From Eubacterium sp. UBA3279 (lineage in GTDB: Bacteria > Bacillota > Clostridia > Lachnospirales > Lachnospiraceae): 64,000 bases of DNA. The notes below the pieces were generated by a model, which saw nothing but the letters and a program-made list of their open reading frames with translations, did not search any database and was not told the DNA's origin. Shown piece by piece: positions 1,376 to 33,472 of the stretch; within the stretch, counting starts at the first letter, position 1; the number at the start of each line of letters is the position of its first letter. The stretch lies in the NCBI GenBank assembly GCA_002361775.1, contig DETV01000048.1, positions 2,186 through 66,185 of the forward strand, in the 5' to 3' direction. The translations under genes and the position numbers were made by a program.

Positions 1376-1388
1376 AGAAAACACCTCC

Positions 1389-5806: not shown

Positions 5807-5818
5807 TTCCTCCTGTGA

Positions 5819-7802: not shown

Positions 7803-7813
7803 ATCAGTACCTC

Positions 7814-8698: not shown

Positions 8699-8703
8699 TG
8701 TAA

Positions 8704-11317: not shown

Positions 11318-11341
11318 AGCGTTCTCCTTTCTCTTGGGGTA

Positions 11342-11428: not shown

Positions 11429-11441
11429 ATCGTCTGTCTTT

Positions 11442-12799: not shown

Positions 12800-12822
12800 A
12801 TTGACCACCTCACATTTCATTC

Positions 12823-18800: not shown

Positions 18801-20664
18801 TGAGTTTCGGTGCGTCGTTTCCAAATCCTCTTGAAAGAGTTATGCCTTTCCCATCGTGGTTTTCATCAATACCTGCACCGATAATGACAGGATATGAACC
18901 TCCCCAACCGTATTCGTTTTTGAGAAAGTCTGCATTTTCTTTTGAAGATAAACTCTTTTGAAACTGCTCATAGATACGCATTTTACCTTCGTAAATACCG
19001 CTTCCACGAGTCAGAACTGCGTCGATAATCTCCTGAGAAAAAGTAAAGGCAGAGGTTTTGTTTTCCTCTGCCTGACCGTCTAATATGAAGCTCATCTGTC
19101 CGTCTACCGACGGTAGCGGTTTCATTCTATCATTTAATTCTCCCAAAAGACGCATTGCTTCAAAGTGCTGTGCAATCACACTCCAATTATAGAAACTCTG
19201 TGCAGTTCTGCTGTCATAATGACCTTCCCAAAGATGCAAAACATTCTGAAATGTCTTGTAACCTACGGTTCTCCCATCCTCTAATGTGAGTTCGGTATAG
19301 TCGTTATTGAAGATACTCTTGATATATTCGGTACGGGTATCGCTATCGGTATTTCTCTCATAGAGGTCTTTAATATCTTCAAGAGAAGCCGATAAATGCG
19401 GTGTAGTACCGAGTATCTCTCGGATAGTATCATCCCCACCGAAAAACGGCAGGCTCTTATCCTCGTTGCTTCTGTCGTAATACTCTAAACGAATATTACC
19501 TGTGCTTTCACGATTTCCTGTGCCGAGTTCCTGATGTTGTTCATCAAGCGAATCCAATTCATCATATCGTCCGCTTTCATCTGCTCCGTCAGCCCCTCTT
19601 GCTGTGCCATCTGCCTGATAAGCGTTTCTTCCAGTTTGGTCGCCCTCTGCTGTACTTCTGACAGATGACTGCTCAGTATCCCTTTCGTCAGGAGATTGTA
19701 ATACTGAACCTTGTGGTGTTCTTTCAGATAAGTTCTCCTCATCTGCGACCATTTGCCCTGAATGACCTCCGGCTGTTCGGGCAGAGTCAGGTTCGGAAGA
19801 TTGTAATCCCCGACCATCGTGTATGTTATCTCGTTCATAATCGCTACTCCTTTCGTCTTTGATGTCTTTATTGTATTCCGGTTGCCTGTTTGCTTCAATT
19901 ATGCGATTTTGACGGTTCAGTGCCATCACTGTTTTTGAGATTTCCGAAAGTCCCATCTCTGCAATATCGCTTGTGGCAAATCCCAGAGCGTTCATCGTAT
20001 CCTGCGTATTGAAATTTGTAACATCTCGAAAATCATCTACTTCAAAGTATTCGCTGGTATCAATTCCAAGCCTTGTCATAATCATATATGCCACGCTGTT
20101 TGTGACAACCTTTTTATACAGACTTGCAATCATCGTTTCGTCAAGTCCTTCTAAGAAACTGTCCTCGGAAGCATATATGAGGTCATTAAGATAATCCGGC
20201 AAATTATCTTCGGCGGCATTTTGTGCGGCACTCATAACTGCTTCGCCCAAAGTGACTTTGTTATCCAGTTCTCCGAATGTGCTTTCAAGCGTTTCAATAA
20301 CATCGTCTGTGTATTCGTTCCTCATATTCCAAAGTGGAACAGGACGGGAATATCTGCTCTCGTGAGTATCGGAAATATCGAAGTAGTGGATAAGTCTTTG
20401 TCTTGCTCTGTTTTCATCGGCAAATACCGCAATACCTCTTGCCCCTCTATTTACCCAACGTCCAAAACTCCTGTTCCAACGCTCGATTTCAAGAACTGCC
20501 GTAGCGTCCGGTCGCTGTGCATATATAAGCAACTGCTCATCGTATCTTAGCTTATAATTCCTACACGCAGACTGCAAGAAATTCCGCCAGTTCTGCGGAT
20601 TGGAAACAACCGTCTTGCAGGTTCTGTCATAGAGTTCGGATATGAGTTCGTATTTTCTTGACAC
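12823..20664 (-). CDS. Giant ArdC-N / N6-adenine methyltransferase / SNF2 helicase fusion (DarB-like)
   Basis: LLEPSCGIGNF and GNVPF MTase motifs; AHAVGAGKT, FIDESH, ATGTPISNS, QRSGRIIRQGN helicase motifs; ArdC-like N-terminus. Confidence 0.88.
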   Translation of the reverse strand: MSRKYELISELYDRTCKTVVSNPQNWRNFLQSACRNYKLRYDEQLLIYAQRPDATAVLEIERWNRSFGRWVNRGARGIAVFADENRARQRLIHYFDISDTHESRYSRPVPLWNMRNEYTDDVIETLESTFGELDNKVTLGEAVMSAAQNAAEDNLPDYLNDLIYASEDSFLEGLDETMIASLYKKVVTNSVAYMIMTRLGIDTSEYFEVDDFRDVTNFNTQDTMNALGFATSDIAEMGLSEISKTVMALNRQNRIIEANRQPEYNKDIKDERSSDYERDNIHDGRGLQSSEPDSARTAGGHSGQMVADEENLSERTPQGSVLQSPDERDTEQSSVRSTAEGDQTGRNAYQADGTARGADGADESGRYDELDSLDEQHQELGTGNRESTGNIRLEYYDRSNEDKSLPFFGGDDTIREILGTTPHLSASLEDIKDLYERNTDSDTRTEYIKSIFNNDYTELTLEDGRTVGYKTFQNVLHLWEGHYDSRTAQSFYNWSVIAQHFEAMRLLGELNDRMKPLPSVDGQMSFILDGQAEENKTSAFTFSQEIIDAVLTRGSGIYEGKMRIYEQFQKSLSSKENADFLKNEYGWGGSYPVIIGAGIDENHDGKGITLSRGFGNDAPKLNLKWTQVEKRIGELIRADRYLNPKEKEQYPQWLEKQEARRAEIEEQKRNREILSTAPPKEAEQANDDDIIGKEIVIDARRFVIESIGKISGDVSMRDVTFEDSVGFPINRVEKIDYVRSLLAEQTQEQQLPDTRYEYHLGDTVYIGASEYEILSFDDERVMLYDTEMPLFNKEFSRGEFDRKVQENPLNDHLRVTVLPAAEKADTDENITHSDTETEQKTDYEDAFFINREQESVTWMYFNPDSSAGGQYVTNTLSFDEIRNAAQNYKSADEFFDYLGSVANQTLADVGTEWFEEADTAFRQTPDFTECTTDTMGALIENTERSDMVATNIGKVPIEDYREIIANQNGFDSYDEMYNEGIRIGNGYDKETEPIKPQWENKTSKVKSFDLHPDIPMAERNTFDLRSNPVEPAGKKERFRRNMEAIKVLKECEFENRFATPEEQFILSKYVGWGGLPEAFDENNSAWADEFVELYTALSPEEYATARESTLTAFYTPPEVTDAIYKAMEQMGFKEGNLLEPSCGIGNFIGMLPESMKNTKIYGVELDTVSAGIAQQLYQKSSIAAQGFEEVNVPDSFFDGVVGNVPFGDFKVLDKRYDKYNFLIHDYFFAKALDKLRPGGVMALVTSKGTMDKMNSSVRKYIAQRADLLGAIRLPNDTFKGNAGTEVVSDILFLQKRDRLIDIEPNWVQLGTTDDGITMNSYFVEHPEMILGEMKTVSGRFGEEVTCIPFENADLSELLSEAVANIHGEINDYEVEAELEEEDNSIPADPNVRNFSYTVVDDKIYFRENSRMTPVEVSATAENRIKGMVAVRDSVRNLIELQTEDYPDEEIKAEQSKLNSLYDSYTKKYGLINSRANISAFSDDSSFALLSALEVINENGELERKADMFFKRTIKPHKPVEKVDTASEALAVSMGEKAEIDMEYMSKLTGKSEETLYQDLKGVIFLNPLYGYGNVTEAKYLMADEYLSGNVREKLITAKKSAELYPEDYKINVEALEKVQPKDLTASEISVRLGATWLPQEIIQQFMFEFLDTPRYAQWNIKVHFSPYTGEWNIEGKSYDRSNVKAYSTYGTGRINAYKIIEETLNLKDVRIFDYIEDDEGRKKAVLNKKETAIAQAKQELIKQGFQDWIWADPDRREKLKKMYNEKFNSIRPREYDGSHITFSGMNPEITLREHQRNAVAHILYGGNTLLAHAVGAGKTFEMVAASQESKRLGLCNKSLFVVPNHLTEQWAAEYLQLYPSANILVATKKDFETKNRKKFCGRIATGDYDAVIIGHSQFEKIPMSIERQRAILEQQLNELTEGIAELKRNRGENFSVKQLEKSRKSVKQKLQKLNDQSRKDDVVTFEELGVDRLFIDESHYYKNLYLYTKMRNVGGIAQTEAQKSSDLFMKCRYLDEITGGRGTVFATGTPISNSMVELYTIQRYLQYNTLVKNGLQHFDAWASTFGETVTAIELTPEGTGYRAKTRFAKFYNLPELMAMFKEVADIKTADMLNLPVPEAEYHNVSVEPSEMQKEMVASLAERAEKVRGGGVDSSVDNMLKITNDGRKLALDQRMLNDMLPDFENSKINACVDNVYRIWEENKDKKSAQLVFCDLSTPKNDGTFSVYNDIRKKLIERGVPESEVRFIHEAETDVKKKELFQKVRKGEVRVLMGSTQKMGAGTNVQDRLIALHDVDCPWRPADLEQRSGRIIRQGNSNPKVEIYRYVTKQTFDAYLYQLVEGKQKFASQIMTSKSPVRSAEDIDETALSYAEIKMLATGNPYIKEKMDLDIQVQKLKLLKSNFLSEKYSLEDKIIKYYPQRITSLENRINGLTADVKTAKQHPKPTDDRFVGMEVKGVFYSEKADAGKAIIEACKEMTSPAPIPLGKYRGFETELSFDTTERSYCVTVKGETGKQVSLGDDVFGNITRIDNAVERFADDLEKAKDSLADTKNQFETAQKEVQKPFVQEEELKSKLARLDELNILLNMDKKENEIVGGEPDEGESTEKRKEKSYER
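19485..19838 (-). CDS. TnpV family protein, nested in alternative frame of the giant helicase gene
   Basis: GAAAGGAG RBS 8 nt before ATG; MNEITYTMVGDYNLPNLTLPE..GKW..MRRTYLKEHH..YYNLL..G.L..HL..EQMKADDMMNWIRLMNNIRNSAQEIV is the TnpV pattern. Confidence 0.8.
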   Translation of the reverse strand: MNEITYTMVGDYNLPNLTLPEQPEVIQGKWSQMRRTYLKEHHKVQYYNLLTKGILSSHLSEVQQRATKLEETLIRQMAQQEGLTEQMKADDMMNWIRLMNNIRNSAQEIVKAQVIFV

Positions 20665-20679
20665 TGCTTTTGCACCTCC

Positions 20680-20961
20680 TTATCGTTCTTTTTCTTTGCT
20701 TTTTGTCGGTTTTGTCTTTTCCTTTCCGGCTGGTTCAACGGTATGACCGTTTCTTTCACACAGCTCTGCAAATTCACAGATATGAAAAACATCCGAACCG
20801 ATTTGTGTATGATAATCGTCGATATACTTACACTCACGCTCCAGTGTTGTTCCGTTTCTTGTGTGAATCAGGATTTTATCTCCGTCATTTACACGAAATT
20901 TCTCGTTGTATCCACTGTCAATAAAGCGGATACTGTTTTCCTTATGTTCCTGACTGCTCAT
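20680..20961 (-). CDS. Small ICE hypothetical protein
   Basis: GGAGGTG RBS; IRFIDSGYN...CKYIDDYH..IG...FHICEFAE module typical of Clostridiales ICE proteins. Confidence 0.7.
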   Translation of the reverse strand: MSSQEHKENSIRFIDSGYNEKFRVNDGDKILIHTRNGTTLERECKYIDDYHTQIGSDVFHICEFAELCERNGHTVEPAGKEKTKPTKSKEKER

Positions 20962-21169
20962 CCGTTCCACCTCCCAAATATGAGAACAACTTGTTGGCTT
21001 TGGTTTCTTTCTGAAGTTCGATGATGAGTGCCATATCCGGTATCGTAATACCCGGAATCTTCAAAATACTCTCCATATCAAGTTGTTGTAATTTCTTTTC
21101 CGTATTACAACCGGAATCAAACAGCTTCGCCATTAATTTTGTTTTCTGTTGAAATGTCGGTTTGCTCAT
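20942..21169 (-). CDS. Hypothetical protein
   Basis: GGAGG RBS, overlaps next gene. Confidence 0.65.
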   Translation of the reverse strand: MSKPTFQQKTKLMAKLFDSGCNTEKKLQQLDMESILKIPGITIPDMALIIELQKETKANKLFSYLGGGTDEQSGT

Positions 21170-21181
21170 CTTGCGTCCTCC

Positions 21182-21472
21182 TTATTCAATTTCTATGACT
21201 ACACGAATACTGCTGTCGCAGCCACTGCACTGTCTGGAAAGTTCCGGGAACAAAGATTGCACCCTCTGTCTTGACCTGCGGATAGTTTCAAAGCACGGTA
21301 AACCGTAGCCCTTGTAGTTGTTGACTATATCCTCAAGAGATAAGTCGCCGACTTTCAAATAACTGTATCGGTTGTAATAGCAGAGGATAAGCTGCATATC
21401 GTCATACCTTGTTTCAGGGCATTCTCTGAGGATTGCAAGCACCTTGCTGTCAACCGTTCTCTGCTTATTCAT
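21182..21472 (-). CDS. Hypothetical protein, possible helical DNA-binding fold
   Basis: GGAGGTG RBS before ATG 21472; VLAILRECPETRYDD...ETIRRSRQRVQ. Confidence 0.6.
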   Translation of the reverse strand: MNKQRTVDSKVLAILRECPETRYDDMQLILCYYNRYSYLKVGDLSLEDIVNNYKGYGLPCFETIRRSRQRVQSLFPELSRQCSGCDSSIRVVIEIE

Positions 21473-21485
21473 AAAGCACCTCCAT

Positions 21486-21519
21486 AAAGTAAATGGACGG
21501 AGTTTTTTCGCTCCGCCCA
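21486..21519 (-). terminator. Intra-operon intrinsic terminator-like hairpin
   Basis: Minus TGGGCGGAG-CGAAAAAA-CTCCGTCCA then TTTACTTT. Confidence 0.6.
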
Positions 21520-21531
21520 CCATTTTGTTTC

Positions 21532-21621
21532 TTATTTCTTTCTGTTTTTAATCTGTAAAAAGATAAAGCCGCCGATAATAAAGGCGACCAAAACAACTGC
21601 TACGATTGTCTTTGCGTCCAT
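21532..21621 (-). CDS. 29-aa single-TM peptide
   Basis: MDAKTIVAVVLVAFIIGGFIFLQIKNRKK; TAATG overlap with adhesin stop, AAGGAGG upstream. Confidence 0.6.
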   Translation of the reverse strand: MDAKTIVAVVLVAFIIGGFIFLQIKNRKK

Positions 21622-24600
21622 TATTCATTGCCCTCCTTTTTCTTCTTTCTCTTGGAAGCAACAACCGTTGCAACGATACCGAGTGCAGAAGCACCTGCAA
21701 GTGCTACCCAAAGACTGGTCTTTCTGTCATCGCCGGTTTTCGGTGTATCACGAAGTTTATTGTACATCTCGATTTCTACCGTTTCGCCGACCTTTACAGT
21801 CACTTTCTTATCGGCAGGTAAAATATATCCAGCAGATACATTGTCGCTGACCTCGGACACTGTGTATTCGCCGATACGAAGCCCATCTACGGAGATTTCG
21901 CCATTCTTATCGGTTGTAAAGGTGCTGTCATAACCGTTGACACCTGTTACTCTGAAAGTGAAGCCTTCCACCTTACCGTCGGAAGATGTCTTTTTAATTT
22001 TCAGGTTTCCTTTCATTGCTTCGTTGATAAAGCCGACTCCCGCTTTGTTTTCTACCTTGTAGGTAGTTTCATCTTTTTCAATGAATACGGAGTAAACGCC
22101 CTTATCAAGCACAAAGCCCTCCGGTGCTTTGGTTTCTCGTACAAGATATTTACCGTAGAGAAGTTCTTTCATCTCATAGATACCGGTTGCGGTTTCTTCA
22201 AGATTTCCGATAAGTTCATCGCCATCGTCCAGTTTACCGTCGCCATTAACATCCTTATATACTTCAAAAGTTGCACCCGTCAGTTTGTTATCTGGATAAT
22301 CAGCATCCACTTTGGTAAGTTCAATATTACCGTGAATATACTCGTCGGTAATTTCCACTTCGATGACCTGCTCATTCTCCCCGATGTTTACTTCGTAGGA
22401 AGTATCATCAAGCACAAAGCCTTCTGGAGCTTCGATTTCTCTTACAATCCACTTTCCATAAGGAACTTTTGCAAAAGAAAAACTGCCGTCCTTTTCAGAT
22501 GTGGCAGTCATAATAGCGTGTTCTTTTGTAAATTCGGTTTCATCTGCTTTGAAAATGCCGATTAAAGCACCGCCCAGTGCTTCTCCGTTCTCGTCAATCT
22601 TCTTACCGGATACAGAACCGTAAATAAGTTTGTTTTCAATCGGCTTACCGTCATTTACCTTGATTTCAACCGTTTCGGTATCCTGCCCGGCATACTCGAA
22701 TGTGAACGGATACTGTGTGTCGGAGAGAATATAATGCTCATCTGTGGCAATTTCCTTGATATAGTAACTGCCAAACGGAAGGTCTGTATTTGCAGTCGCT
22801 GCTCCGTTTTCATCAAGCGTGATAATCTCAATCAATCCGTCAGCCGGAATAACTGTGCCGCTTGAAGATACAACATCTTCTTTTGCATAAAGACCGAAGC
22901 TGATGTTTTTGATTTCATCGTTCTTGCCGATACCAAAGGTTTCATTCTGTTCTAAGATTTTTTCAAGAGAAATCTTCACTTTCTGTCGCTCGTTTACGAA
23001 GCTGGTTGCAGTTTCAGTTACCGCTACATCCTGTCCGGCATAAGTGAGTTCCACCGAATGCTTTTCTTTGTTGATGACCATACCTGTCGGTGCTTTGGTT
23101 TCTACTACCGTATATTTACCGAGATAGAGTTCCTTACTCTTAGCTGTTCCGTCCTCATCGGTTGTTACAGTATCTACTACATCGCCCTTGTGATAACGAA
23201 GTGTACCATCCGGTGTGATAACATCTTCATCGGCTGTGATTTCATAAACCGCACCTGCAAGTCCTTTGACTTTATACACCGGCTGATAAATCACATCTTT
23301 ATCTTCCTCGCCGGATACATTGACACCAAAGAATACTTCGCCGGTTTTCTCAACGGAAATCGTACCTTTCTGTGCCATATTCGGCTTATCCACCCTAATC
23401 AATGTGATACCACCTTCCTGTGTGGAATTTTCTTCTGTTACATCAAAGGAAACAGGTGTGCTGTCGAGTACATATCCATACGGAGCCTGAACCTCAACAA
23501 GAGAATATCCCTTGCCATAGTCCAATTTTTCAGGTGTAACAAGCTGACCGTCTGCATCAGTATAGAATGTGTCAATGGTTGTCGGTGTCGGATAAGTAAA
23601 TGTCATACTTACCTTGTTGCCGTCAGGGTCATAAATCTGGAAGCCTGCACCTGCATATGGAATCGTCTTGCCTGTTTCAACATCTTTCTTTACCACCTTG
23701 ATATATGACTCAAAGTTGGCATTGTTGATGAGATAACGGTAGGTCTGTCCGTCCTGAGAAATGAAAACATCAAAGTCTTTCATAAACTCACGACCTTCCC
23801 AACCTTTGGTCTGATGAACGGTATATACGCCGTATGGCATATCCTTTGTCTGAGCAAATCCGTTTTCATCGCAAACTATGGTATCTCTTTCATCCTTGTC
23901 GGCTTTTTCAAATGAGCCGGAAGATTTCAGATACACTTCAAATTCAGCACCGTTTTCCGGTGTCTCAATCTTGGTTTCCCCATCATCGGTGTGTTTGATG
24001 ATAGCAATATTTCCTTTCATAACCTGCTCTGTCACGTCGTTTGCCACAAGATTGTGTTCAATCGTAAAGAGTTTTGGCTCTGCACCTACCTTGTGGATTG
24101 TCTTATCAAGGAGATAACCCTCACTCGGTGTGATTTCTCTGATTGTCCAATCACTGTCGCAGACATATTCCTTAGTTGTGAACTGTCCGTCGCTGTCTGT
24201 CACATACTTATCCACAAGTGTGTCGCCTTTATAAATTCCGTAAACAGCACCGGAGAGTTTTGCGTCGCCCTGAGCAGTGCCTTCTTCTCGGTCGCTCTTT
24301 GTTACAGTTACGCTGAACTTCTTCAAGATATTTGTGAAATCACGGTTTGTAACCCCTTTCCACTGAATCGGTGCAGTCTGTTTTTCGGGAACGACATAGC
24401 GGATTGCTGTATCCACTTCTTCGAGCGTATATGGTGTGCTTCCGCTGATAAGAACATCTTTGAATGTTGCAACACCGTTTTTATCGGTAACTGCATATTC
24501 ATCAACTGCAATGCCTGCAAGGGAAGTACCGTAAAGGTGGAATTTCATACCCTCAACAAGATTATCTTCCGATGATTTAATGACCTGAAGATTACCTCTC

Positions 24601-25871
24601 TTGAGAACATTGTTGAAGTTTACGGTTGCCACCTGACCGGCTACAACAGTTACTCTGTGAACTTCCTGCGGTACATATTTGTCAATAGACTGTTCTGTTA
24701 CGGTATATACACCGGGCATAAGGTTGTCAAGCTGGAACTTACCGCCGTTTGCTGTGGTAACTGTCTGATTTACTCCGTTACCTGAAATAGTGAAATTGAT
24801 ACCGTCAACCTTTCCGTCCTCAGATGTTTTCACAATCTGACAAGAACCATAGCTGACTTTCATCTTCACATATCCGGTTACAGGGTCGCTGACTTCCTGT
24901 GCGTAAGTAACAACATCCTGCACGCTTGAATTTTGACTGTGCTTACCCTCAGACCATACGACAACACCTCTGCGGACACCGTTTTTCTTACTTGCGGTAA
25001 TAGTAAATTCCTTACTCGGTGCTTTATCCATTGACACCGTAAGTTTGTTTCCGTTTGTAGAAAATGTTACACCACTGATACTCGCCTTAAAATTATAATT
25101 GGCAAGTACACCGTTTGAGTCTGTAAGGGTTGCAACATATTTGCTTCCGTTCCATTCAAGCTCTTTTACTTTTGCAGAACCGCTTGATTTAGTACAGAAG
25201 CTCGGCACAACTGTGTGATTCTGCACACTGCTGACCATACTGTTGTAGTAACTCATAATCTTACTGCGAAGCGGATGTTTGGCATTGATAACATCTTTTA
25301 CATTACTGCAACCACTGGCTGCTTTGTGATTAAAGTTTGCGTCACGCTCACCTACGACAGTTTCCCAAATAAGAAGCTGTGTTGCATAAGCGTGAGCAAT
25401 ACTGTTTGCCGCACTTTCGTTCTGCGACCTCCAGCTTGTTGAAATCGTTCCTCGATAGCCGTACTGCAAGATACGACCGATAAAGAGTCTGATTTCATCG
25501 CCGGAGATAACTCCGTTTGCTGTGATATTGTTAAAATAATTTTCATCGTATTTGTTCATACTCTGACCTGAGCTAAGTGAAACACCCGGCTCGATACAAT
25601 AGGCAATATTACCGGAATATGAACCGATTGCCTTTAAGTTGGTATGGGTGGAACTGCCGGTATGCCAACCGTTCTTCAAAGTAAGGTTACTGTGTCCCCA
25701 CACACCGTCGTAATTTGCGTCGCCGTCACGAGGGAAATCAACCATATACACTTTGGTCTTTTCTCCGCTTGCGGCAAACGCTGTGCTTGTCCCAATACTC
25801 ATAAATGCACTGAGACTGAGAACCGTCACCATAACAAACGATACGGCTCTCTTGATTTTCGACTTTGCCAT
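21621..25871 (-). CDS. Sortase-anchored adhesin with thioester (TED) domain and SpaA/CnaB-type repeats
   Basis: Signal peptide; AYCIEPG and ATQLLIWE TED motifs; repeated G.Y.V.E..AP.GY domains; TPKTGD + TM + basic tail. Confidence 0.88.
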   Translation of the reverse strand: MAKSKIKRAVSFVMVTVLSLSAFMSIGTSTAFAASGEKTKVYMVDFPRDGDANYDGVWGHSNLTLKNGWHTGSSTHTNLKAIGSYSGNIAYCIEPGVSLSSGQSMNKYDENYFNNITANGVISGDEIRLFIGRILQYGYRGTISTSWRSQNESAANSIAHAYATQLLIWETVVGERDANFNHKAASGCSNVKDVINAKHPLRSKIMSYYNSMVSSVQNHTVVPSFCTKSSGSAKVKELEWNGSKYVATLTDSNGVLANYNFKASISGVTFSTNGNKLTVSMDKAPSKEFTITASKKNGVRRGVVVWSEGKHSQNSSVQDVVTYAQEVSDPVTGYVKMKVSYGSCQIVKTSEDGKVDGINFTISGNGVNQTVTTANGGKFQLDNLMPGVYTVTEQSIDKYVPQEVHRVTVVAGQVATVNFNNVLKRGNLQVIKSSEDNLVEGMKFHLYGTSLAGIAVDEYAVTDKNGVATFKDVLISGSTPYTLEEVDTAIRYVVPEKQTAPIQWKGVTNRDFTNILKKFSVTVTKSDREEGTAQGDAKLSGAVYGIYKGDTLVDKYVTDSDGQFTTKEYVCDSDWTIREITPSEGYLLDKTIHKVGAEPKLFTIEHNLVANDVTEQVMKGNIAIIKHTDDGETKIETPENGAEFEVYLKSSGSFEKADKDERDTIVCDENGFAQTKDMPYGVYTVHQTKGWEGREFMKDFDVFISQDGQTYRYLINNANFESYIKVVKKDVETGKTIPYAGAGFQIYDPDGNKVSMTFTYPTPTTIDTFYTDADGQLVTPEKLDYGKGYSLVEVQAPYGYVLDSTPVSFDVTEENSTQEGGITLIRVDKPNMAQKGTISVEKTGEVFFGVNVSGEEDKDVIYQPVYKVKGLAGAVYEITADEDVITPDGTLRYHKGDVVDTVTTDEDGTAKSKELYLGKYTVVETKAPTGMVINKEKHSVELTYAGQDVAVTETATSFVNERQKVKISLEKILEQNETFGIGKNDEIKNISFGLYAKEDVVSSSGTVIPADGLIEIITLDENGAATANTDLPFGSYYIKEIATDEHYILSDTQYPFTFEYAGQDTETVEIKVNDGKPIENKLIYGSVSGKKIDENGEALGGALIGIFKADETEFTKEHAIMTATSEKDGSFSFAKVPYGKWIVREIEAPEGFVLDDTSYEVNIGENEQVIEVEITDEYIHGNIELTKVDADYPDNKLTGATFEVYKDVNGDGKLDDGDELIGNLEETATGIYEMKELLYGKYLVRETKAPEGFVLDKGVYSVFIEKDETTYKVENKAGVGFINEAMKGNLKIKKTSSDGKVEGFTFRVTGVNGYDSTFTTDKNGEISVDGLRIGEYTVSEVSDNVSAGYILPADKKVTVKVGETVEIEMYNKLRDTPKTGDDRKTSLWVALAGASALGIVATVVASKRKKKKEGNE

Positions 25872-25887
25872 CTAATTTTCCTCCTTA

Positions 25888-25921
25888 AAATGAAAGAACG
25901 CACCGATTATCTCAGTGCGTC
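25888..25921 (-). terminator. Intra-operon intrinsic terminator-like hairpin
   Basis: Minus GACGCACTGA-GATAA-TCGGTGCGTT then CTTTCATTTT. Confidence 0.6.
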
Positions 25922-25945
25922 CGATACTGTATTTTATTTTGTTTT

Positions 25946-26626
25946 TTAGCAGTAGCCGATATAGATTTCATATTCCGTATCGGATACCTTTTCTGCCCAT
26001 ACCCATACTGCGGTAAATCCTTCCACATTTTTGTATCTGTTCAGCCTGCTTTGAATATCGTCCTTAATGCCTGTGCGTTTGGCATTGGCAGTGATAGGAT
26101 TATCCCAACAATCCGTAGCAGTACTGTCCAACTCCAAACCGATACTTTGAGCATAATTCTTAGCATAACTCACATAAGGATTAACATCAAAGCTCGGCTT
26201 TACTTCTTCCGTCGGTTTTGACTGCGTGGGTTTCACTTCTTCCTTAACCGTCGGTGTTTCCGGCTTTGACTGCGGTTGTTGCTGTGGCTGCTCCTGTTCT
26301 TGAATACTGTCAGGCTTTTTCGTTACTTGAACGGATTCATAGCTTTTTGCAGTTTCCGCCCTACTACCTGCCGTAGAAGAAACACCCGACTTTTCCTGCT
26401 GATTCGGCTCTGTTGCTGCTTCACTTGATACCGGTTGCTCCGTCTCGGGAACATCACTTGTATCATCTGCTTTTTCTGTTTCGGTCGTTGTTTCGGTATT
26501 ACCTGCCGTAGAAGAAATCCTTTTATCCGTGTCATTTCGTGCGGTTTCTTTGGCTGTGTTACCGTTACATCCAGCAAGCAAAATCATCAAGCAGGCAATC
26601 ATACAAACCATCCATTTCTTTTTCAT
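25946..26626 (-). CDS. Lipoprotein of unknown function
   Basis: Lipobox LLAGC, low-complexity T/E/Q/P linker, compact C-terminal domain. Confidence 0.8.
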   Translation of the reverse strand: MKKKWMVCMIACLMILLAGCNGNTAKETARNDTDKRISSTAGNTETTTETEKADDTSDVPETEQPVSSEAATEPNQQEKSGVSSTAGSRAETAKSYESVQVTKKPDSIQEQEQPQQQPQSKPETPTVKEEVKPTQSKPTEEVKPSFDVNPYVSYAKNYAQSIGLELDSTATDCWDNPITANAKRTGIKDDIQSRLNRYKNVEGFTAVWVWAEKVSDTEYEIYIGYC

Positions 26627-26866
26627 AAGCTATCATTCCTTTCGCCTTAATCGTAATCAATCGGGCGAAAAACAGCAAAGGTGCGAATATCCAAACTTTT
26701 AATCGTATCAGACATTTTATTTGCACTTCAAATGTGCGAACCCTTTATTAGACAGCTATAAGTTATGAGAGATAGTTATATTCAAGTGAGATAGAATATA
26801 TATTTTCAGCACGTAAACAGTAGGTATTAGGGGGTAGAGTGTGAGAAGGGGGAGTAACAAAATCGG

Positions 26867-27799
26867 CTATCTGCTGTCACGGTCTGCCCGTTGCCTGAGA
26901 TACTTGTTATAATGCTCCAATGCCTTGCACACGAAATCCTCCGTTTGGCTGATTGGAATATTCTTCGGGATGAGTTGTCGCACTCTGTCTCCCCTTAACA
27001 CAATCTTCTCTTTCTGGTTCGGCTTTTCCTCCGACATAATGGCTTGGATAGCTTCAGTTGTGAGTTTGCCCTCATCGAAAAACTTACGCATACGAATAGT
27101 CTGGTCGTGAGAGGGAGTTGCGTCGTTCATATCAATCTCGTCAACTACATCACGCTGACAATCTTCGTCAAGATACGAAAGCTCCACCGCCGGTCGCATT
27201 TTAATTCGCCCCTCATCAACAAATTCAAGCAGTTCGGGAACAAGGTTTGTAAGGCGAACATAACGCTGGATTTGCGTTTTACTATCAGCAGAATTTTCTG
27301 CAATTTGTTCCACCGAGAACTTCTGACCCACTGGGGCAGAAGTTAAATCAGAACGAAATCCTTGCCTTTTCATAGCGTCCAAACGCATTTTGTAGGCATA
27401 GGCTTTTTCAGAGGGAAGTATCTGTGACCTTTGGAAATTACTTTCCACCATTAGAATTGTGGCTTCATCTCTATTAAGGTCAACAACCTCACATCTTAGC
27501 GTTTCAAAACCGGCAAGTTCGCTTGCTCGTTTTCGTCTGTGACCGGATACGAGTTCATATCTTCCGTCCTCTTTCTGCCTTACCGTTGCCGGAGTAATCA
27601 CTCCACGCTCCTTGATACTCTCGACAAGCTGTTGCATATCTTCATCGTCCCTGACCTTGAACGGGTGATCTGGGAAATCGTCAATCAGCTCTAATGGAAT
27701 ATCTCGGATTTTAGAAAGTCTTTCTTCCTCTCTCTGTGCCTGCGTTGTAAAAAGGTCATCGAGTCTCGTGAGAGTGAAGTCGCTCTTTCTTCCTGCCAT
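26867..27799 (-). CDS. parB: ParB/RepB/Spo0J partition protein
   Basis: FPDHPFKV, YELVSGHRRKRA arginine patch, HTH region. Confidence 0.9.
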   Translation of the reverse strand: MAGRKSDFTLTRLDDLFTTQAQREEERLSKIRDIPLELIDDFPDHPFKVRDDEDMQQLVESIKERGVITPATVRQKEDGRYELVSGHRRKRASELAGFETLRCEVVDLNRDEATILMVESNFQRSQILPSEKAYAYKMRLDAMKRQGFRSDLTSAPVGQKFSVEQIAENSADSKTQIQRYVRLTNLVPELLEFVDEGRIKMRPAVELSYLDEDCQRDVVDEIDMNDATPSHDQTIRMRKFFDEGKLTTEAIQAIMSEEKPNQKEKIVLRGDRVRQLIPKNIPISQTEDFVCKALEHYNKYLRQRADRDSR

Positions 27800-28580
27800 C
27801 GGCTAACACCTCCTTCGTAAATTCGGTGTATGCCTTTGACACCGTACTGTTTGGCTCATAAGCAAAAATGCTCTTTCCTTTGGAAGAAGTTTCTGCGGCT
27901 TTTACAGCAATCGGAATAGATGTGCGATACAGCTTAATCTGATTTCCGAAATTCTCCCGCAATGCTTCCACCGTACTTTTGGCGAGGTTTGTGCGGTTAT
28001 CCACCAAAGTGAGAAGCATACCGTCTATCTTAATGTCCTGATTGATATACTTCTTGACTTTTGAAATGGTCTGCACAAGCTGGGTCATACCCTTAGCCGG
28101 CAAATACTGTGCCTGCACCGGAACAATCACGCTGTCTGCCGCAGATAGAGCATTAAGTGTTACCATACTCAGTGAGGGCATACAGTCAATCAGAACAAAA
28201 TCATATCTGTCTTTGACCTGACTTAAATAATTCCTCAAAGTGGTTTCTCTGCTCATAGCGTTCATCAGGTTATATTCCATCGCCGAAAGTTCAAGGTTTG
28301 CCGGTAAAAGGTCAACGCCTTCCTCGTGGTGTAGAATACCGTCTGTCGGGTCATTCATCGTTTCACTAATCACATCTGTAAGTTTCGTTGCAAGCGTGAT
28401 ACCCAAATTGTCTGTATCTCTCCAACCGAGACAGGTGGTTAAATCTCCCTGTGGGTCTGCGTCAATGAGCAAGACTTTCTTACCCTGCATTGCAAGCCCA
28501 ACACCAAGATTAACCGTTGTCGTTGTCTTTCCGACTCCGCCTTTTTGATTGCATATGGCAATCGTTTTGCAGTTTGACAC
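27756..28580 (-). CDS. parA: ParA/Soj ATPase
   Basis: NQKGGVGKTTT deviant Walker A, IDADPQG, LIDCMPSL. Confidence 0.92.
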   Translation of the reverse strand: MSNCKTIAICNQKGGVGKTTTTVNLGVGLAMQGKKVLLIDADPQGDLTTCLGWRDTDNLGITLATKLTDVISETMNDPTDGILHHEEGVDLLPANLELSAMEYNLMNAMSRETTLRNYLSQVKDRYDFVLIDCMPSLSMVTLNALSAADSVIVPVQAQYLPAKGMTQLVQTISKVKKYINQDIKIDGMLLTLVDNRTNLAKSTVEALRENFGNQIKLYRTSIPIAVKAAETSSKGKSIFAYEPNSTVSKAYTEFTKEVLADGRKKERLHSHETR

Positions 28581-28599
28581 TTCTTGCCTCCTCCTTTCA

Positions 28600-28955
28600 A
28601 TTTATTCATAGCCAATAAAAACGGCTATGTACTTGACCGTTTCATTTCCTAAACGGTCGTGGCAATATTTATTCTCAATATCCCTTGCCAAGCATATCGC
28701 TTTCGGGAAGTCGTTAAGGAACAGGCTGCTTATCTGTATCATAGGAATCTAACCTCTGCCGGGTACTCCGCCAGCTCCGTAGAGAAGTATCATTATCTTT
28801 CTGACCGTCATCGCCATATCGGTTGCAATCCGATACTCATAGCAGGAGTTCTCGCTGTTCTGAAATTTCAGAAGTTTCGGCGTACCTACTAAAGTGGCTA
28901 TCATCAGAATTAAAGTCTTAACGACCTGTGTATTCAGTTGTCAAAGAACAAGTGA
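28600..28955 (-). ncRNA. Candidate structured 5' leader RNA of the parA-to-transfer operon
   Basis: Stems at 28607-29, 28635-58, 28660-90, 28817-35, 28858-73; long-range 28710-18/28917-25; G-U extensions favour the minus strand. Confidence 0.45.
28932..28951 (-). promoter_or_regulatory. boxA-like antitermination element
   Basis: Minus TTGTTCTTTGACAACTGAAT resembles rrn boxA (E. coli TGCTCTTTAACAA; Firmicutes GTTCTTTGAAAAC). Confidence 0.55.
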
Positions 28956-28986
28956 AAAGGCTTCCGTTTTCATTATCAGGAATTAA

Positions 28987-29026
28987 CCCCTTCACTCATT
29001 GCACAAAAGGCTTCATTTTGGACACC
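28987..29026 (-). promoter_or_regulatory. Candidate alternative-sigma promoter
   Basis: Minus GGTGTCC...GTGAAGGGG preceded by A/T tracts, directly downstream of a terminator; inference only. Confidence 0.3.
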
Positions 29027-29073
29027 CAAAATCGCTTCTTTTCCGAAAAAAATTTCAAAAAATTTTTGACAAC

Positions 29074-29110
29074 AAAAAAAGCCGCCTGTTTCGGTTAAAA
29101 AACAGACGGC
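29074..29110 (-). terminator. Intrinsic terminator
   Basis: GCCGTCTGTTT-loop-AAACAGGCGGC then T7. Confidence 0.85.
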
Positions 29111-29124
29111 ATAAATGCTTGAAA

Positions 29125-29298
29125 TTATTTGATTTTCAGTTTCTTTTTCCTTGCGGACAGCACTTTCAGAAGAACTTCATCTACTGCGTCGGTGTATCTT
29201 CCTTGTACTATGAGGTTGTTTTTCAGATTGATAAGCGACTGTATCACTCTGCTTTGCTCATCATCGGTTAGATAAATGTGATATTTCTTTTCTCTCAT
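29125..29298 (-). CDS. Small conserved ICE protein (57 aa), paralogue of 7599..7802
   Basis: MREKKYHIYLTDDEQSRVIQSLINLKNNLIVQGRYTDAVDEVLLKVLSARKKKLKIK; GGAGG RBS, ATGA overlap; missed by ORF track. Confidence 0.75.
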   Translation of the reverse strand: MREKKYHIYLTDDEQSRVIQSLINLKNNLIVQGRYTDAVDEVLLKVLSARKKKLKIK

Positions 29299-30683
29299 CG
29301 GCTGTTCCTCCAGTTCTTAAATATTTTCCTGATTATCTTAACATCTTCTTCTGTATCGGAAGATATAAATATATGTACGCTCTGAAATGCTGCTTTGATA
29401 CGCTGTGCATATTCGGGTTCCGCTTCGTTTGGCTTCATCGGCAACTTAATGAGTTTGATTCCACGTTGTTTACAGAGATGTTCCTTTAGTATATCTATCT
29501 TCTCCGAGTCCGTATTCACTTGAATGGCAACCTGCTCCAGTGGAATATATACATCAAGTGGAATGCCGAATAACCTATCAGAGCCAAGTTCCACTTTCAA
29601 GCCTTTCAAATTGGCATAATAACTGATTGCAAGAGCCGGGAACAACGACAGATACTCCTGCTCACATATTCTGCACCCTTTTCCGAGAGCAGTACGCTCG
29701 TTTATCTTCATACTCCAAGAATGACCGTATCTGCATTGCCACCATGCTCTCTTTGCCGAATTTCTTGAAACTTCTGTCGGTTTTAACTTGTTTAATTCAT
29801 AATCCCACTCAACAAGCAGTTCTCTATCAGTTGTTGCAAGGTCATTGTATCCTGCAAGCACTTCTCGCTCTGCACAGACAGGGCAAACCGTTCCTTTCAC
29901 ACGAGCATTTATAACTGATTTCCACTCGTTTCCACATTTTCTGCAATGCCACCATACATTTTTCCTCGACTTTGCATTGACTTCATCCGGTTGCAGAGGA
30001 TAGTTTTTCTCTGACCATTCTTTGCCTATCTGTGGGTGTGTACTTTTTAGGTCATTCTTGCCTTTTATAAATGTATAGCCACTGCAACAGGGACATTTAC
30101 TGCCACCTGAGCGTGTAGAGATAAGCGTATTCCATTCATAACCGCAGGTATTGCACTTCCACCAAGCCTTGCTGTTTGCAAACGCCATAACTTCGGTAGG
30201 CTTCTTTTCATTCTTATCAGACCATTCGTCTGCAACTTCCGGGAACAGGGTTGCAAGGTCGTTAAATCCTGCAAGCACTTTGTTATGGGAGCAGTACGGG
30301 CAACCTGTTTTGTTGATGGTTCTACTCTTTACAGTGGCTATCCATTCGTGTCCTAATTTACACTTCCATATCACTTTCTTGTGTGAGCCGATAGATACAT
30401 CTGTCGGCTTGATTTCATTTTTCTCTGACCACTCCGAAGCCAATTCCGGCTTCAATGTACTTAAATCGTTAATTCCCTCAATCACTCTCGCACCGGAGCA
30501 TATGGGGCATTTCTCGCCACTGGAACGAGCCTTTATACTTGTTTCCCATTCGTGACCGCAAGCACCTTTCCACCATACTTTCTTATTCGAGCCGAAAGTC
30601 ACACTGTCTGGTGTCAGCGGTAAATTCCTGTCCGACCATTCTGCAATCAGTTCGGGATGTACTGCCGCTAAACTGTTACTCAT
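29295..30683 (-). CDS. Tandem treble-clef zinc-ribbon repeat protein (DUF4379-like) with degenerate nuclease-like C-terminus
   Basis: Five ~65-aa repeats P....EW...N...P..V...S..K.WW.C..GHEW......R.....CP.C. Confidence 0.8.
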   Translation of the reverse strand: MSNSLAAVHPELIAEWSDRNLPLTPDSVTFGSNKKVWWKGACGHEWETSIKARSSGEKCPICSGARVIEGINDLSTLKPELASEWSEKNEIKPTDVSIGSHKKVIWKCKLGHEWIATVKSRTINKTGCPYCSHNKVLAGFNDLATLFPEVADEWSDKNEKKPTEVMAFANSKAWWKCNTCGYEWNTLISTRSGGSKCPCCSGYTFIKGKNDLKSTHPQIGKEWSEKNYPLQPDEVNAKSRKNVWWHCRKCGNEWKSVINARVKGTVCPVCAEREVLAGYNDLATTDRELLVEWDYELNKLKPTEVSRNSAKRAWWQCRYGHSWSMKINERTALGKGCRICEQEYLSLFPALAISYYANLKGLKVELGSDRLFGIPLDVYIPLEQVAIQVNTDSEKIDILKEHLCKQRGIKLIKLPMKPNEAEPEYAQRIKAAFQSVHIFISSDTEEDVKIIRKIFKNWRNSR

Positions 30684-30762
30684 ATCAAAACCTCCACTTC
30701 CTCTGTGATTAAAGTATATGAAGTTTCGGATTTTTCTTGTAGTTTGCGAATGTAGGTAAAAT

Positions 30763-30807
30763 TAAAAAAGCCCTTTGAGAAAAGATTTCTCCTCGCTCAA
30801 AGGGCTT
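30763..30807 (-). terminator. Intrinsic terminator
   Basis: AAGCCCTTTGAG/CTCAAAGGGCTT 12-bp stem, T-run on minus strand. Confidence 0.85.
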
Positions 30808-30850
30808 GATAAATTGGAAGTTGTCACTTTCCTGTACTTATAATTTTTCA

Positions 30851-31303
30851 TCAAAGTGGTTGCATCATCTCAAGAATGATTCCATCCGGGTCTCTGAAAT
30901 AAAAAGCTCTGCTTTCCCCAAATCCATCTGCCCTAAAGTCGAAATACTGCGGTTCAGACAAGCACTCCACATGATTTTCGATAAGGGTTTTGTAAACAGA
31001 ATCAATGTCATCCGTGTAAAAGCATACTTCTGAGATAGATGTCGTAAACAAGTCTGATTGTTCTTTATGGATTTTGCTGTCTACAAACTGAATCAATTCA
31101 ATCGGTGGTGCTTCAAGAGCCTTCGAACCATTCAAATATGCAACCCTTGCTTTACAATTTTCCTTACGGAACATTTTATCTGTCTCTTCGCCTTCCATAA
31201 AGATTTCGCCCTGAAATTCAAGCCCAAGAATATCTCTGTAGAAAGCAATCGAGCGATCCAAATCAGAAACGGTTAATCCAACGTGATAAATTCTTCCAAC
31301 CAT
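30851..31303 (-). CDS. VOC / glyoxalase family protein
   Basis: YHVGLTVSDLDRSIAFYRDILGL; FYFRDPDGIILEM. Confidence 0.88.
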   Translation of the reverse strand: MVGRIYHVGLTVSDLDRSIAFYRDILGLEFQGEIFMEGEETDKMFRKENCKARVAYLNGSKALEAPPIELIQFVDSKIHKEQSDLFTTSISEVCFYTDDIDSVYKTLIENHVECLSEPQYFDFRADGFGESRAFYFRDPDGIILEMMQPL

Positions 31304-31344
31304 ATATACTCCTCCTGTAAATTTCGATATGTATTTTTGTTTGT

Positions 31345-31380
31345 TTTAAAAGTGGGCAATCCCGATTGGAATTGCCCACT
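31345..31380 (-). terminator. Terminator-like hairpin downstream of lysS
   Basis: AGTGGGCAAT/ATTGCCCACT 10-bp stem then TTTAAAA. Confidence 0.6.
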
Positions 31381-31429
31381 CATTGCACTAATTATGCGAT
31401 TTTTAAGGCTCTGCACCGTTTCAAGCACC

Positions 31430-31458
31430 ATTTGGTGTAAATTTGGTGTATTTGTGTA
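31430..31458. repeat. Tandem ATTTGGTGTA direct repeats (integrase arm-site-like)
   Basis: Copies at 31430-39, 31441-50, partial 31451-58; another exact copy at 31911-20. Confidence 0.6.
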
Positions 31459-31517
31459 TTTTCAGAGCTTTTTCACAAATGAAGTACATCCCGTTTTATA
31501 GGGTAAAACGGTACTTC

Positions 31518-33449
31518 TTAGTAGAGCTTTGCACCTGCCGGGATTCTGTCATCTACCATCAGAAGGTTCAGTCCTTCGTGACCGTCTTCCTCGTGTACGG
31601 CTGAAATCAGCATACCCTCAGAGTCAATGCCCATCATCTTTCTCGGTGGCAGGTTCACGATAGCGATTGCTGTCTTACCAACCAGTTCTTCCGGCTCATA
31701 ATAGTCGTGAATACCGCTTAAAATCACACGGTCTTTGCGTTCTCCGTCATCTAATGTAAACTTCAGAAGCTTCTTTGACTTCGGTACTGCTTCACAAGCT
31801 AAAATCTTAACTGCTCTGAAATCAGACTTACTGAATGTATCGAAATCTACCATTTCTTCAAAGATTGGCTCAATCTTCACATTAGAGAAATCAATTTTTT
31901 CTGGCTCTGAATTTGGTGTAGAAACCTCTTTAGAACTTACACCATTTTCGGATTTTACAGCACCGATGGTCTTCATTGTCGGGAACGCCAGAACGTCACG
32001 GATTGCTGCAGAATCTGTCAACAGCATTACCATACGGTCAATACCGAATCCAATTCCACCTGTAGGCGGCATACCGATCTCCAGCGCATTCAGGAAATCT
32101 TCATCTGTAGTATTGGCTTCTTCGTCTCCCTGAGCAAGCAGTTCTTCCTGTGCTTTAAAACGGGCTCTCTGGTCAATCGGATCATTCAGCTCGGAATAAG
32201 CATTTGCCATCTCCCATCCGTTCATGAAGAACTCAAAACGCTCTGTATATTCAGGATTTTCCGGTTTTTTCTTTGTCAGAGGAGAAATCTCAATCGGGTG
32301 ATCCATAACAAAGGTAGGCTGAATCAGATGTTCTTCTGCAAATTCTTCAAAGAACAGGGCAAGAATATCGCCTTTTTTATGACGTTCTTCATACTCTACA
32401 TTATGTTCTTTTGCTGCAGCTCTTGCTTCTTTCAGAGTGTGAATTTCATTGAAATCAACACCTGCATATTTCTTAACTGCATCTACCATAGTGATTCTTT
32501 CAAATGGTTTTCCCAGATCCATTTCAATTCCGTTATATACGATCTTAGTTGTTCCCAGAACTTCCTGAGCCACATAACGATACAGATTTTCTGTAAGATC
32601 CATCATTCCATTATAGTCTGTATAAGCCTGGTACAGCTCCATCAGTGTAAATTCCGGATTATGTCTTGTATCAAGTCCTTCGTTACGGAATACACGGCCA
32701 ATCTCATAAACTCTTTCCAGACCTCCTACGATCAGTCTCTTCAGATATAATTCCAGAGAAATACGCAGTTTCAGATCTTCATTCAATGCGTTAAAATGTG
32801 TTTCAAATGGTCTTGCTGCTGCACCGCCGGCATTTGCTACCAACATAGGAGTTTCCACTTCCATAAATCCCTGAGTATCCAGGTATTTACGGATAGCGCT
32901 GATAATTTTGGAACGTTTGATAAAGGTATCTTTAACTTCCGGATTCATAATCAGATCCACATATCTTTGACGATAACGGATATCTGTATTCGTCAGTCCG
33001 TGGAACTTCTCAGGAAGTACCTGCAGACTCTTGGAAAGCAGAGTCACAGCAGATGCATGAATGGAAATTTCTCCGGTTTTGGTTTTGAAAACTTCTCCGG
33101 TAATACCAACAATATCGCCAATATCCATTTTCTTAAATGCTTTGTATTCCTCTTCTCCAATGCTGTCTCTTGCCACATAAGACTGAATATTTCCCTTCAG
33201 ATCCTGCACATTGCAGAAAGAAGCTTTACCCATCACACGTTTGGACATCATACGGCCTGCGATAGAAACGCTTTTACCCTCATAAGCCTCAAAATCATCT
33301 TTCAATTCTGTGCTGTGATTGGTAACATCATATTTTGTAATTTGAAACGGGTCTTTTCCGTTTTCCTGGAGTTCTGCCAGTTTCTCCCGGCGCACCTTCA
33401 ATAACTGATTAATATCCTGTTCCTGAACCTGCTTCTTCTGTTCTGCCAC
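31518..33449 (-). CDS. lysS: Lysyl-tRNA synthetase (class II) with C-terminal tRNA-binding (Trbp111/MetG-C-like) domain
   Basis: OB-fold, [39 protein letters not shown]; tail SGIHDYY..LVGK...[10 protein letters not shown]; GTG 33449 after AAGGAG. Confidence 0.97.
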
Positions 33450-33472
33450 CTTTTTCACTCCTTATCTTTAAA

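Follow-up and report, generated by a model that had tools for sequence, protein, structure and literature searches.

A Tn916-type integrative element within lysS very probably supplies the tRNA-binding domain of its host's lysyl-tRNA synthetase

The window analysed here, a stretch of 64,000 nucleotides from Eubacterium sp. UBA3279 (Lachnospiraceae), carries on its minus strand an open reading frame (33458..31518) whose 646-amino-acid translation identifies it as lysS, the gene for lysyl-tRNA synthetase (LysRS). The core of the protein comprises an anticodon-binding domain (Pfam tRNA_anti-codon, PF01336, amino acids 64–141) and a class II catalytic domain (tRNA-synt_2, PF00152, amino acids 158–495). 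Amino acids 16–497 correspond to the canonical bacterial class IIb enzyme, with whole-protein matches over the curated cutoffs (NCBIfam PRK00484 (NF001756), 716 bits, cutoff 468; TIGR00499, 665 bits, cutoff 428). The core is followed by a C-terminal tail, here called tail A, in which amino acids 548–643 form a tRNA_bind OB fold (PF01588, E = 6.5e-24, 84.3 bits, cutoff 27) that matches solved structures over the entire fold, the best being the Aquifex MetRS-beta/Trbp111 proteins (1PYB, E = 5.9e-22; 8VTZ, E = 4.8e-22). Tail A thus resembles Trbp111, the C-terminal domain of MetRS and EMAPII-like domains in its OB fold and in its C-terminal position on a synthetase. The Entamoeba LysRS (4UP7) also has a C-terminal tRNA_bind domain. 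In all these proteins the domain is a fixed part of the gene, whereas the copy in the window appears to be mobile. The motif FPTMK (amino acids 492–496; 31971–31985) marks the point at which the two parts meet.

Positions 1..31517 (minus strand) are occupied by the body of an integrative and conjugative element (ICE), assigned by Pfam domains, synteny with a related element and GC skew, which is about −0.12 in the element versus about −0.27 in the host part above 33 kb. The ICE continues past the edge of the window to the end of the contig, 2185 nt away. Its Pfam-annotated genes, read away from lysS, encode a glyoxalase (30851–31303), a DUF4379 protein (29295–30683), ParA (27756–28580), ParB (26867–27799), a TED/SpaA adhesin (21621–25871), a giant SNF2/methylase protein of 2613 amino acids (12823–20664), a primase (11843–12820), a MobA-type relaxase (PF03432, 9494–10858), a type IV coupling protein (T4CP, PF02534, 5819–7609), a VirB4-like ATPase (TraG P-loop/AAA_10, 1389–3755) and a sortase (194–961). 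Relaxase, coupling protein and VirB4-type ATPase together make up a conjugation module. No van genes were found in the visible part of the ICE.

The 3′ end of lysS is a known integration target. Streptococcal ICEs at this site (for example, ICE_SsuGZ1_lysS) are flanked by direct repeats of 13–17 bp and resemble the window ICE in their tyrosine integrase, their repeats at the lysS end and the minimal damage to the target; the streptococcal gene, however, stops at the repeat or shortly beyond it, the elements bear no domain and their conjugation modules differ from that of the window ICE (PMC4701971). The enterococcal VanD islands Tn6711, Tn6712 and Tn6713 lie in lysS with a 13-bp repeat, TTCCCGACAATGA, that is 17 bp from the stop, so that only a few codons are replaced in Enterococcus; circular forms of Tn6711 and Tn6713 were obtained by PCR, and an origin of these islands in Blautia or other Clostridiales has been proposed (PMC8301612). 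Related islands have been reported in Blautia coccoides YL58, B. producta SCSK, Lachnospiraceae M18-1 and Ruthenibacterium (PMC8725431). The VanD islands have in common with the window ICE the lysS target, the core repeat TTCCCNACAATGA, a Clostridial gut source and a tyrosine integrase encoded at the end distal to lysS.

In the window, the putative attL core and overlap is the 18-nt sequence CGTTCCCGACAATGAAGA (31970..31987, minus strand), which encodes (A)FPTMK, contains TTCCCGACAATGA and places the insertion at TTCCCNACAATGA. An identical 18-mer, the candidate attR, lies at 31005–31022 of C108, a separate contig of the same genome (G000). Searching that genome with the 155-amino-acid tail as query returned a second tail, tail B, at C108:30529–31022 (minus strand), as the preliminary description had anticipated for a displaced host tail at the other end of the ICE. 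Over the search match (C108:30532–31020) tail B is 75% identical to tail A; the amino acid difference between the two tails (26%) falls mostly in the linker. When the DNA of both tail regions is aligned locally, similarity sets in abruptly at the 18-mer. On its upstream side lies the lysS core in the window but unrelated, non-lysS element DNA on C108. On C108 the core sits between intact tail B and a Tn916-type int/xis pair encoded directly upstream on the same strand. The integrase gene (C108:31518–32531) combines a PF02920 Tn916 arm-binding domain (1.9e-17) with PF00589, the gene at C108:32809–33144 encodes a Tn916-Xis excisionase (PF09035), and a PemK/MazF toxin gene also lies upstream of tail B. 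A T run (C108, about 31518–31521) frameshifts the integrase gene and puts the catalytic C-terminal part (HSLRHTF...LGH...Y) in another frame. The shift could be genuine, leaving a pseudogene that would lock the element, or it could stem from an error of assembly.

Tail B starts exactly where the 18-nt core does, on the FPTMK codons, and lacks a start-codon context of its own. An in-frame ATG lies 10 codons upstream, where no convincing Shine–Dalgarno sequence was found. Some sister elements have GGAG 12 nt before the M of PTMK, which is too weak to be claimed as an expression signal. The 3′ side of tail B retains what appears to be the host terminator, as the hairpin just past its stop is 96% identical to that of the closest relative of the window's genome (G001). 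The C108 host flank beyond it, which encodes a 232-amino-acid metallophosphoesterase, had no matches downstream of lysS in relatives; because the terminator directly after tail B is all that is common to G001, full empty-site synteny is absent.

Recombinase arm-type repeats flank the core on both contigs. On the upstream side of the core, C108 has TACACCA three times, at distances of 115–160 nt. In the window it occurs at 31433–39, 31444–50 and 31914–20 on the minus strand and at 31938–44 on the plus strand, with degenerate copies at 31452–58 and 31956–62. The extended motif TACACCAWW matches 8 times in the 64 kb, where 1.9 matches would be expected; one 520-bp stretch at the lysS tail accounts for four of them. 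The arm-like repeats that the preliminary description had noted after FPTMK are real, and they form two groups. Past the tail A stop, the putative P′ arm consists of direct repeats (TACACAA, TACACCA, TACACCA) with 11-nt spacing (31433..31458, minus strand), homologous to the arm block of a sister ICE in the same genus. Within the linker codons, arm-type sites identified by repeat comparison span 31914..31962: a direct TACACCAAAT (TACACCA, 31914–20, minus strand), an inverted AATGGTGTAAG (31938–44, plus strand) and a degenerate inverted copy read as GCTGTAA (TACAGCA, 31956–62, plus strand).

The linker sites recur. Sister elements with TACACCA or TACATCA arms after the stop carry, at the same offsets past the core, two inverted linker copies (TGGTGTAA or TGATGTAA) spaced 18 nt apart, both of them within the first 50 nt that follow the core. 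In every TACACCA-arm element both copies are TGGTGTAA, and 9 of the 11 TACATCA-arm elements scored have TGATGTAA at the second position, so that the linker copies tend to match the post-stop arm type of their own element. The sites encode recurrent G-V-N/D-V-N motifs (SLDGVNKKNDVNN...). Their absence from the host-type tails (tail B, G001, G003, G004 and B. producta) provides independent evidence that the DNA just 3′ of the core in the window is attP-derived. These linker codons would thus be coding DNA that doubles as putative recombinase-binding DNA. At least six arm-repeat types follow tails.

Two hairpins lie between tail A and the glyoxalase gene. The one just past the tail A stop (31476..31517, minus strand; −12.6 kcal/mol, z −2.0) is a weak terminator candidate that is kept in sister tail cassettes. 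The second, a GGGCA...TGCCC hairpin of the element end (31352..31379, minus strand), follows many element tails and aligns between the window, G012 and G005. The block GTACCGTTTTA...TAAAACGGGATGTACTTCATTT found after tail A also follows the tails at six other loci (L045, L059, L067, L073, L077 and L081).

Comparison with relatives indicates which tail belongs to the host. The LysRS core of G001 is 99.0% identical in amino acid sequence to that of the window, and its lysS DNA is 91–99% identical in every 90-nt window from 33471 to about 32038. Identity then falls to 80% in the 90-nt window spanning the att core and to 51–80% through tail A, whereas the OB part of tail B is 84–96% identical to G001 at the DNA level. 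At the amino acid level, tail B is closer to the G001 tail (82.8% identity) than tail A is (70.7%). The host part of lysS, with its anticodon-binding domain and class II catalytic core, would accordingly extend up to the att core (31988..33458, minus strand; Pfam, NCBIfam and DNA identity to G001). Tail A, comprising a linker, the Trbp111-type OB fold and a stop codon in frame with the host core (31518..31969, minus strand), appears to be borne by the element, as indicated by the domain and structure matches, the drop in DNA identity, DNA phylogeny and dN/dS.

Phylogenies of the tails agree in part. In a protein tree of 97 tails and 150 columns, tail B forms a clade with G001 and G003 (SH-aLRT 98), and tail A falls in a 24-row clade composed mostly of tails that are followed by arm repeats, in hosts of several families. 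A DNA tree of 26 rows groups tail B with G001 (support 100/98) and places tail A in a clade (96/97) with tails of Eubacterium aggregans, Ruthenibacterium and Lachnospiraceae M18-1. A topology with tail A constrained to the host clade was rejected with the DNA alignment (26 rows, AU p = 0.0002) but not with the protein alignment (97 tails, AU p = 0.35). The group for the DNA test was named after the first tree had been seen, and it matches the grouping with host-lineage lysS that the preliminary description had stated beforehand as the outcome that would count against a foreign tail. Among 80 loci from species-representative genomes, the cores attached to tails 72–92% identical to tail A are only 49–92% identical to the window core, and the two identities do not correlate (Spearman −0.15). 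An example is Holdemanella hominis, in which the core is 55% identical and the OB domain, judged by eye, near-identical to tail A.

These data bear on another reading of the locus, in which tail A is the native 3′ end of lysS, the ICE lies downstream of the stop and tail B is an unrelated paralogue or free-standing Trbp-like gene. Such an arrangement would account for the post-stop arm repeats and the ICE genes, which start only past the stop codon, and a free-standing tail relative with its own ATG does exist in the genus (G016:C298). Yet the identity to G001 collapses at FPTMK rather than at the stop, so that the junction lies 450 nt upstream of the lysS stop and not downstream of it; tail B starts exactly at the 18-nt core without a start context; arm-type sites lie within the tail A linker; and the DNA AU test rejects tail A from the host clade. 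We regard a native tail A as extremely improbable.

A second alternative is that lysS became a mosaic when its 3′ part was replaced from another bacterium through homologous recombination or gene conversion, with the ICE adjacent by chance. Tails in the genus (64–83% identical) are indeed far more divergent than cores (92–99%), even where no recognisable ICE DNA lies downstream, and because tail B is 83% but the cores 99% identical to G001, native tails in the genus may themselves have been exchanged earlier. A chance association is nevertheless highly unlikely: the breakpoint coincides to the nucleotide with a known integrase core, the displaced tail adjoins int, tail A bears the arm-type sites of its own element, and the whole arrangement is repeated in G005, G022 and Holdemanella. 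The geometry of the locus is, at the level of sequence, as expected for site-specific recombination at a core O: the 18-nt core at both ends and TACACCA arms on both sides, with the ends on separate contigs, and a recombination module composed of a Tn916-type arm-binding tyrosine recombinase (frameshifted) and a Tn916-type excisionase. On this model attL would read lysS core–O–tail (element)–P′ arm, and attR int–P arm–O–tail (host)–host DNA.

The preliminary description had also reported a change in lysine codon usage at FPTMK. Its hand count proved exact on recount (11 AAG to 4 AAA between the K of TMK, inclusive, and the stop, versus 3:9 over 32000–32700), and the entire core has 12:26 (Fisher p = 0.012). 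The ratio is 328:378 in ICE genes overall and 137:337 in host genes. As proof of foreign origin the change was rejected, because the ratio in native tail B is skewed still further towards AAG (8:1) and the change therefore marks the tail domain generally, not the element. Pairwise dN/dS values of tails (0.05–0.35) indicate purifying selection; the element tail copies are therefore maintained as coding sequence, which suggests that they are functional.

A complete example of the proposed arrangement is found in G005, a genome of the same genus assembled in five contigs. Here lysS and its tail (C1:3276245–3278011) and a second tail on the same strand (3221871–3222341) enclose a 54-kb ICE that is syntenic gene for gene with the window ICE (64–92% amino acid identity). 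Its integrase is intact (404 amino acids, 76% identical to that of C108) and adjoins the displaced tail. In G000, the end of C108 and the start of contig C81 lie about 16 kb apart on the G005 ICE map without overlap; these roughly 16 kb of the map have no counterpart in G000 and are presumably variable cargo. From this synteny we infer that both ICE ends are physically linked in G000.

Because the two ends lie on different contigs, the possibility of an assembly or binning artefact has to be weighed, in which C108 comes from a co-occurring strain, perhaps with another lysS element, and tail B is not the displaced tail. The G000 assembly is fragmented (113 contigs, 91.6% complete), tandem elements occupy the site in G005, G022, G024 and M18-1, and many lysS contigs of relatives break at or near the tail, which shows that the locus is hard to assemble. 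However, the estimated contamination of G000 is 0, and the element part of C108 (besides Int, a PemK 77% and one neighbour 57% identical to their G005 counterparts in amino acid sequence) and the start of C81 abut on the G005 map. An artefact is thus very unlikely, and even then tail A would be element DNA, because that assignment is based on the breakpoint, the arm sites and phylogeny.

Taken together, these observations make it very probable that a Tn916-integrase-type ICE sits inside lysS and that its own tRNA-binding domain of about 150 residues replaces that of the host. The chimeric LysRS with an element-supplied Trbp111-like domain, as originally proposed, is supported by the breakpoint, tail B, the DNA tree and the arm sites, and its scale is that of a domain rather than the usual repair of a few codons, in that some 150 codons, a whole OB-fold domain, are replaced. 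In the mechanism we propose, site-specific recombination would insert the ICE at the conserved core TTCCCGACAATGAAG, which encodes FPTMK at the end of the catalytic domain. Since LysRS of the host lineage continues past FPTMK into a Trbp111-like tRNA-binding domain of about 150 amino acids, insertion here would sever that domain. Between core and P′ arm sites, however, the ICE appears to carry a linker, an OB-fold domain, a stop codon and a hairpin, so that the host core would read straight into the element tail to give a chimeric full-length synthetase. The native tail and native terminator would be left promoterless beside int/xis at attR (C108). The tail cassette would in this way restore the target gene and keep the LysRS architecture in tail-bearing hosts. 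Precise excision would restore the native gene; the suggestion that the domain swap makes the element harder to lose is thus unsupported, because excision would rejoin the core to intact tail B.

Sister elements indicate that the tail behaves as a unit separable from the rest of the ICE. In G012, of the same genus, an ICE with ParA, ParB and DUF4379 proteins 82%, 79% and 64% identical in amino acid sequence to those of the window ICE leaves a LysRS that ends FPTMKSLPSDK-stop. Only about 75 nt separate the core from its arms and conserved block (GTGCAG...AAAAATCGCATAA...TGGGCA...GATTGCCCA), compared with about 540 nt in the window and G005, which makes the tail an indel of about 480 nt between core and arms. 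Short LysRS ends (FPTMKSLDK-stop or FPTMKSIDK-stop) also occur in G009, G024 and G018. No LysRS-type tail was found anywhere in G009, G012, G018, G020 or G021 (G009, G012, G018 and G021 being 99–100% complete), and the search for a displaced tail in the G009 and G012 genomes returned only MetRS-type matches. That sister elements truncate LysRS in this way suggests that some backgrounds, at least, can do without the domain. As for the origin of the cassette, our guess, by analogy, is that it was captured by a short-ended ancestor rather than lost from a long-ended one, because the streptococcal and enterococcal lysS targets are short; the donor may have been a Lachnospiraceae lysS.

Displaced tails adjacent to int and followed by arm repeats are common (G005, G022, G024, M18-1 and others). 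One identical tail is attached to lysS in G005 and displaced in G022 and G024, which implies that elements have accreted in tandem and taken tails with them. One and the same core also serves integrases that are only about 40% identical. At L045, in Lachnospiraceae M18-1, the int–core–tail junction involves an integrase that shares only 42% identity with the N-terminal part of its C108 counterpart, so that more than one integrase lineage uses the lysS site. Of 59 genomes in the family of Holdemanella, about 45 encode a tail-less LysRS, among them those whose cores are closest to that of H. hominis (89% and 84%). H. hominis, by contrast, carries two tails, separated by 14 kb, a pattern that would fit a gain of the domain through an element.

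Elements that carry a substitute gene end are familiar from phage 21 and e14 in E. coli icd, SXT in the 5′ end of prfC, and dusA-specific islands. Such elements provide a diverged replacement beyond the crossover that keeps the gene functional, and leave a displaced pseudo-end at the other junction. The icd replacement comprises about 165 bp (about 55 codons) within the same domain. The window ICE differs in that about 450 bp are exchanged, encoding a complete, separately folding appended domain rather than part of one domain; given that sister elements omit the tail, a domain can be retained, exchanged or deleted on integration. In the parts available, the reports on VanD islands call lysS the insertion site, or 'disrupted', with no mention of a replacement domain, whereas the window ICE swaps about 150 codons (PMC8301612, PMC8725431). 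Our literature search found no description of a domain swap at lysS or of a synthetase domain borne by an ICE, and absence there is not proof. The element type, the lysS target and the core are already known; the domain-scale replacement appears to be undescribed.

More broadly, the Trbp111-like domain of LysRS in gut Firmicutes may be a mobile cassette, a proposal to which we give an even chance. The resident element would then set the architecture of the enzyme by swap (the window and G005), deletion (G009, G012, G018 and G024, with ends of the FPTMKSLDK-stop kind) or addition (Holdemanella and other Erysipelotrichaceae, Oscillospiraceae and Christensenellales), and the linker would double as integrase arm-binding DNA. 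What stands out at this known site of gene-end restoration is the domain scale, the series of addition, swap and deletion among sister elements, and the dual-use linker. Within a single genus, nearly the same core occurs with tail A, with tail B and without a tail, which constitutes a natural experiment on the function of the domain. As the clinically watched VanD islands share the site and the core, reports of lysS 'disruption', length variation and contig breaks need rereading. Elements that integrate at gene ends are usually viewed as preserving their target by replacing a few codons; here it would be a whole, independently folding tRNA-binding domain of an essential translation enzyme. Sister elements at this site lack the domain, and near-identical tails are attached to LysRS cores of different bacterial families. 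The domain architecture of a housekeeping protein may, on this evidence, be reshaped by mobile elements through swap, loss and probably gain. If the cassette proposal is true, lineages natively without the tail would gain a LysRS domain from lysS-targeting ICEs and islands.

The window shows a clean break in composition at lysS: over the ICE (1–31000) the GC skew is close to −0.12, whereas over the host genes (33000–64000) it is close to −0.27, and the ICE and host genes compared all lie on one coding strand. A glyoxalase/bleomycin-resistance-family gene (30851–31303, minus strand) sits between DUF4379 and the tail cassette, which encodes the tRNA-binding (OB) domain that follows FPTMK in LysRS. 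It had no tblastn matches among the relatives' loci searched, which included the loci of the sister ICEs in G005, G022 and G012, and is probably cargo particular to the window ICE. In Lactonifactor sp. BIOML-A5 (L098, 1–10459), DUF4379–ParA–ParB–adhesin genes with 71–90% amino-acid identity to those of the window ICE directly abut a junction of att core and tail, with the integrase missing in between; the locus thus looks like what is left of an ICE of this family that an internal deletion has immobilised.

Arm-type repeats follow the displaced tails next to integrases at L024 (G005), L027 (G022), L028/L029 (G024), L045 (Lachnospiraceae M18-1), L050, L065 and L078. Moreover, one identical tail (SLDGVNKKNDVNNTASEAPEKN...) is attached to LysRS in G005 and displaced in G022 and G024. 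These arrangements indicate that elements accrete in tandem at lysS and that tails travel between genera. In Holdemanella hominis L34 (Erysipelotrichaceae; L071, G041 contig C1), the LysRS carrying a tail (37644–39554) has a core, the part before FPTMK, that is 55% identical to that of the window LysRS, and an OB domain that by eye is near-identical to tail A, the ICE-supplied tail of the window. At a distance of 14 kb there is a second tail (23159–23641), which shares 94% identity with the one on LysRS. In most genomes of this family, even those whose cores are closest, LysRS is tail-less. Free-standing OB-domain genes, which start at an ATG of their own and encode an acidic leader at the N-terminus, are found at L041 (G016:C298:~300–693) and L065 (482–847); their OB domains are 72–73% identical to the LysRS tail, and these genes could be either the source of the tail cassette or its product.

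In G001, the closest relative, an insert of about 90 nt lies between the lysS stop codon and the shared host terminator (L005, 240–326). It includes TTTGACAACAAATTTG, which is similar to TTGACAAC, an arm type that other elements at lysS carry, and may be the scar of a past element. Such a scar would agree with the divergence of the 'native' tails across the genus, which are just 64–83% identical whereas the LysRS cores are 92–99% identical.

Same-core elements at L016/L031 (G012), L017 (G009), L022 (G024) and L023 (G018) supply only a few codons, and LysRS at these loci ends in FPTMKSLDK*, FPTMKSIDK* or FPTMKSLPSDK*. Because no LysRS-type tail was found anywhere in the 99–100% complete genomes of G009, G012 and G018, some members of the genus seem able to do without the tRNA-binding domain of LysRS.

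The ICE integrase lies outside the window on C108, another contig of the same genome (31300–32531, minus strand), and is frame-broken relative to the intact, 404-aa integrase of G005: its first frame ends ...NCNDKQF*, and the catalytic part (LPHFSCHSLRHTF...LGH...Y) is in a different frame. By sequence comparison the two differ apparently by one base within a T run, a break that would represent either a true pseudogene or an assembly error. If the integrase is truly a pseudogene, the ICE would be locked in place.
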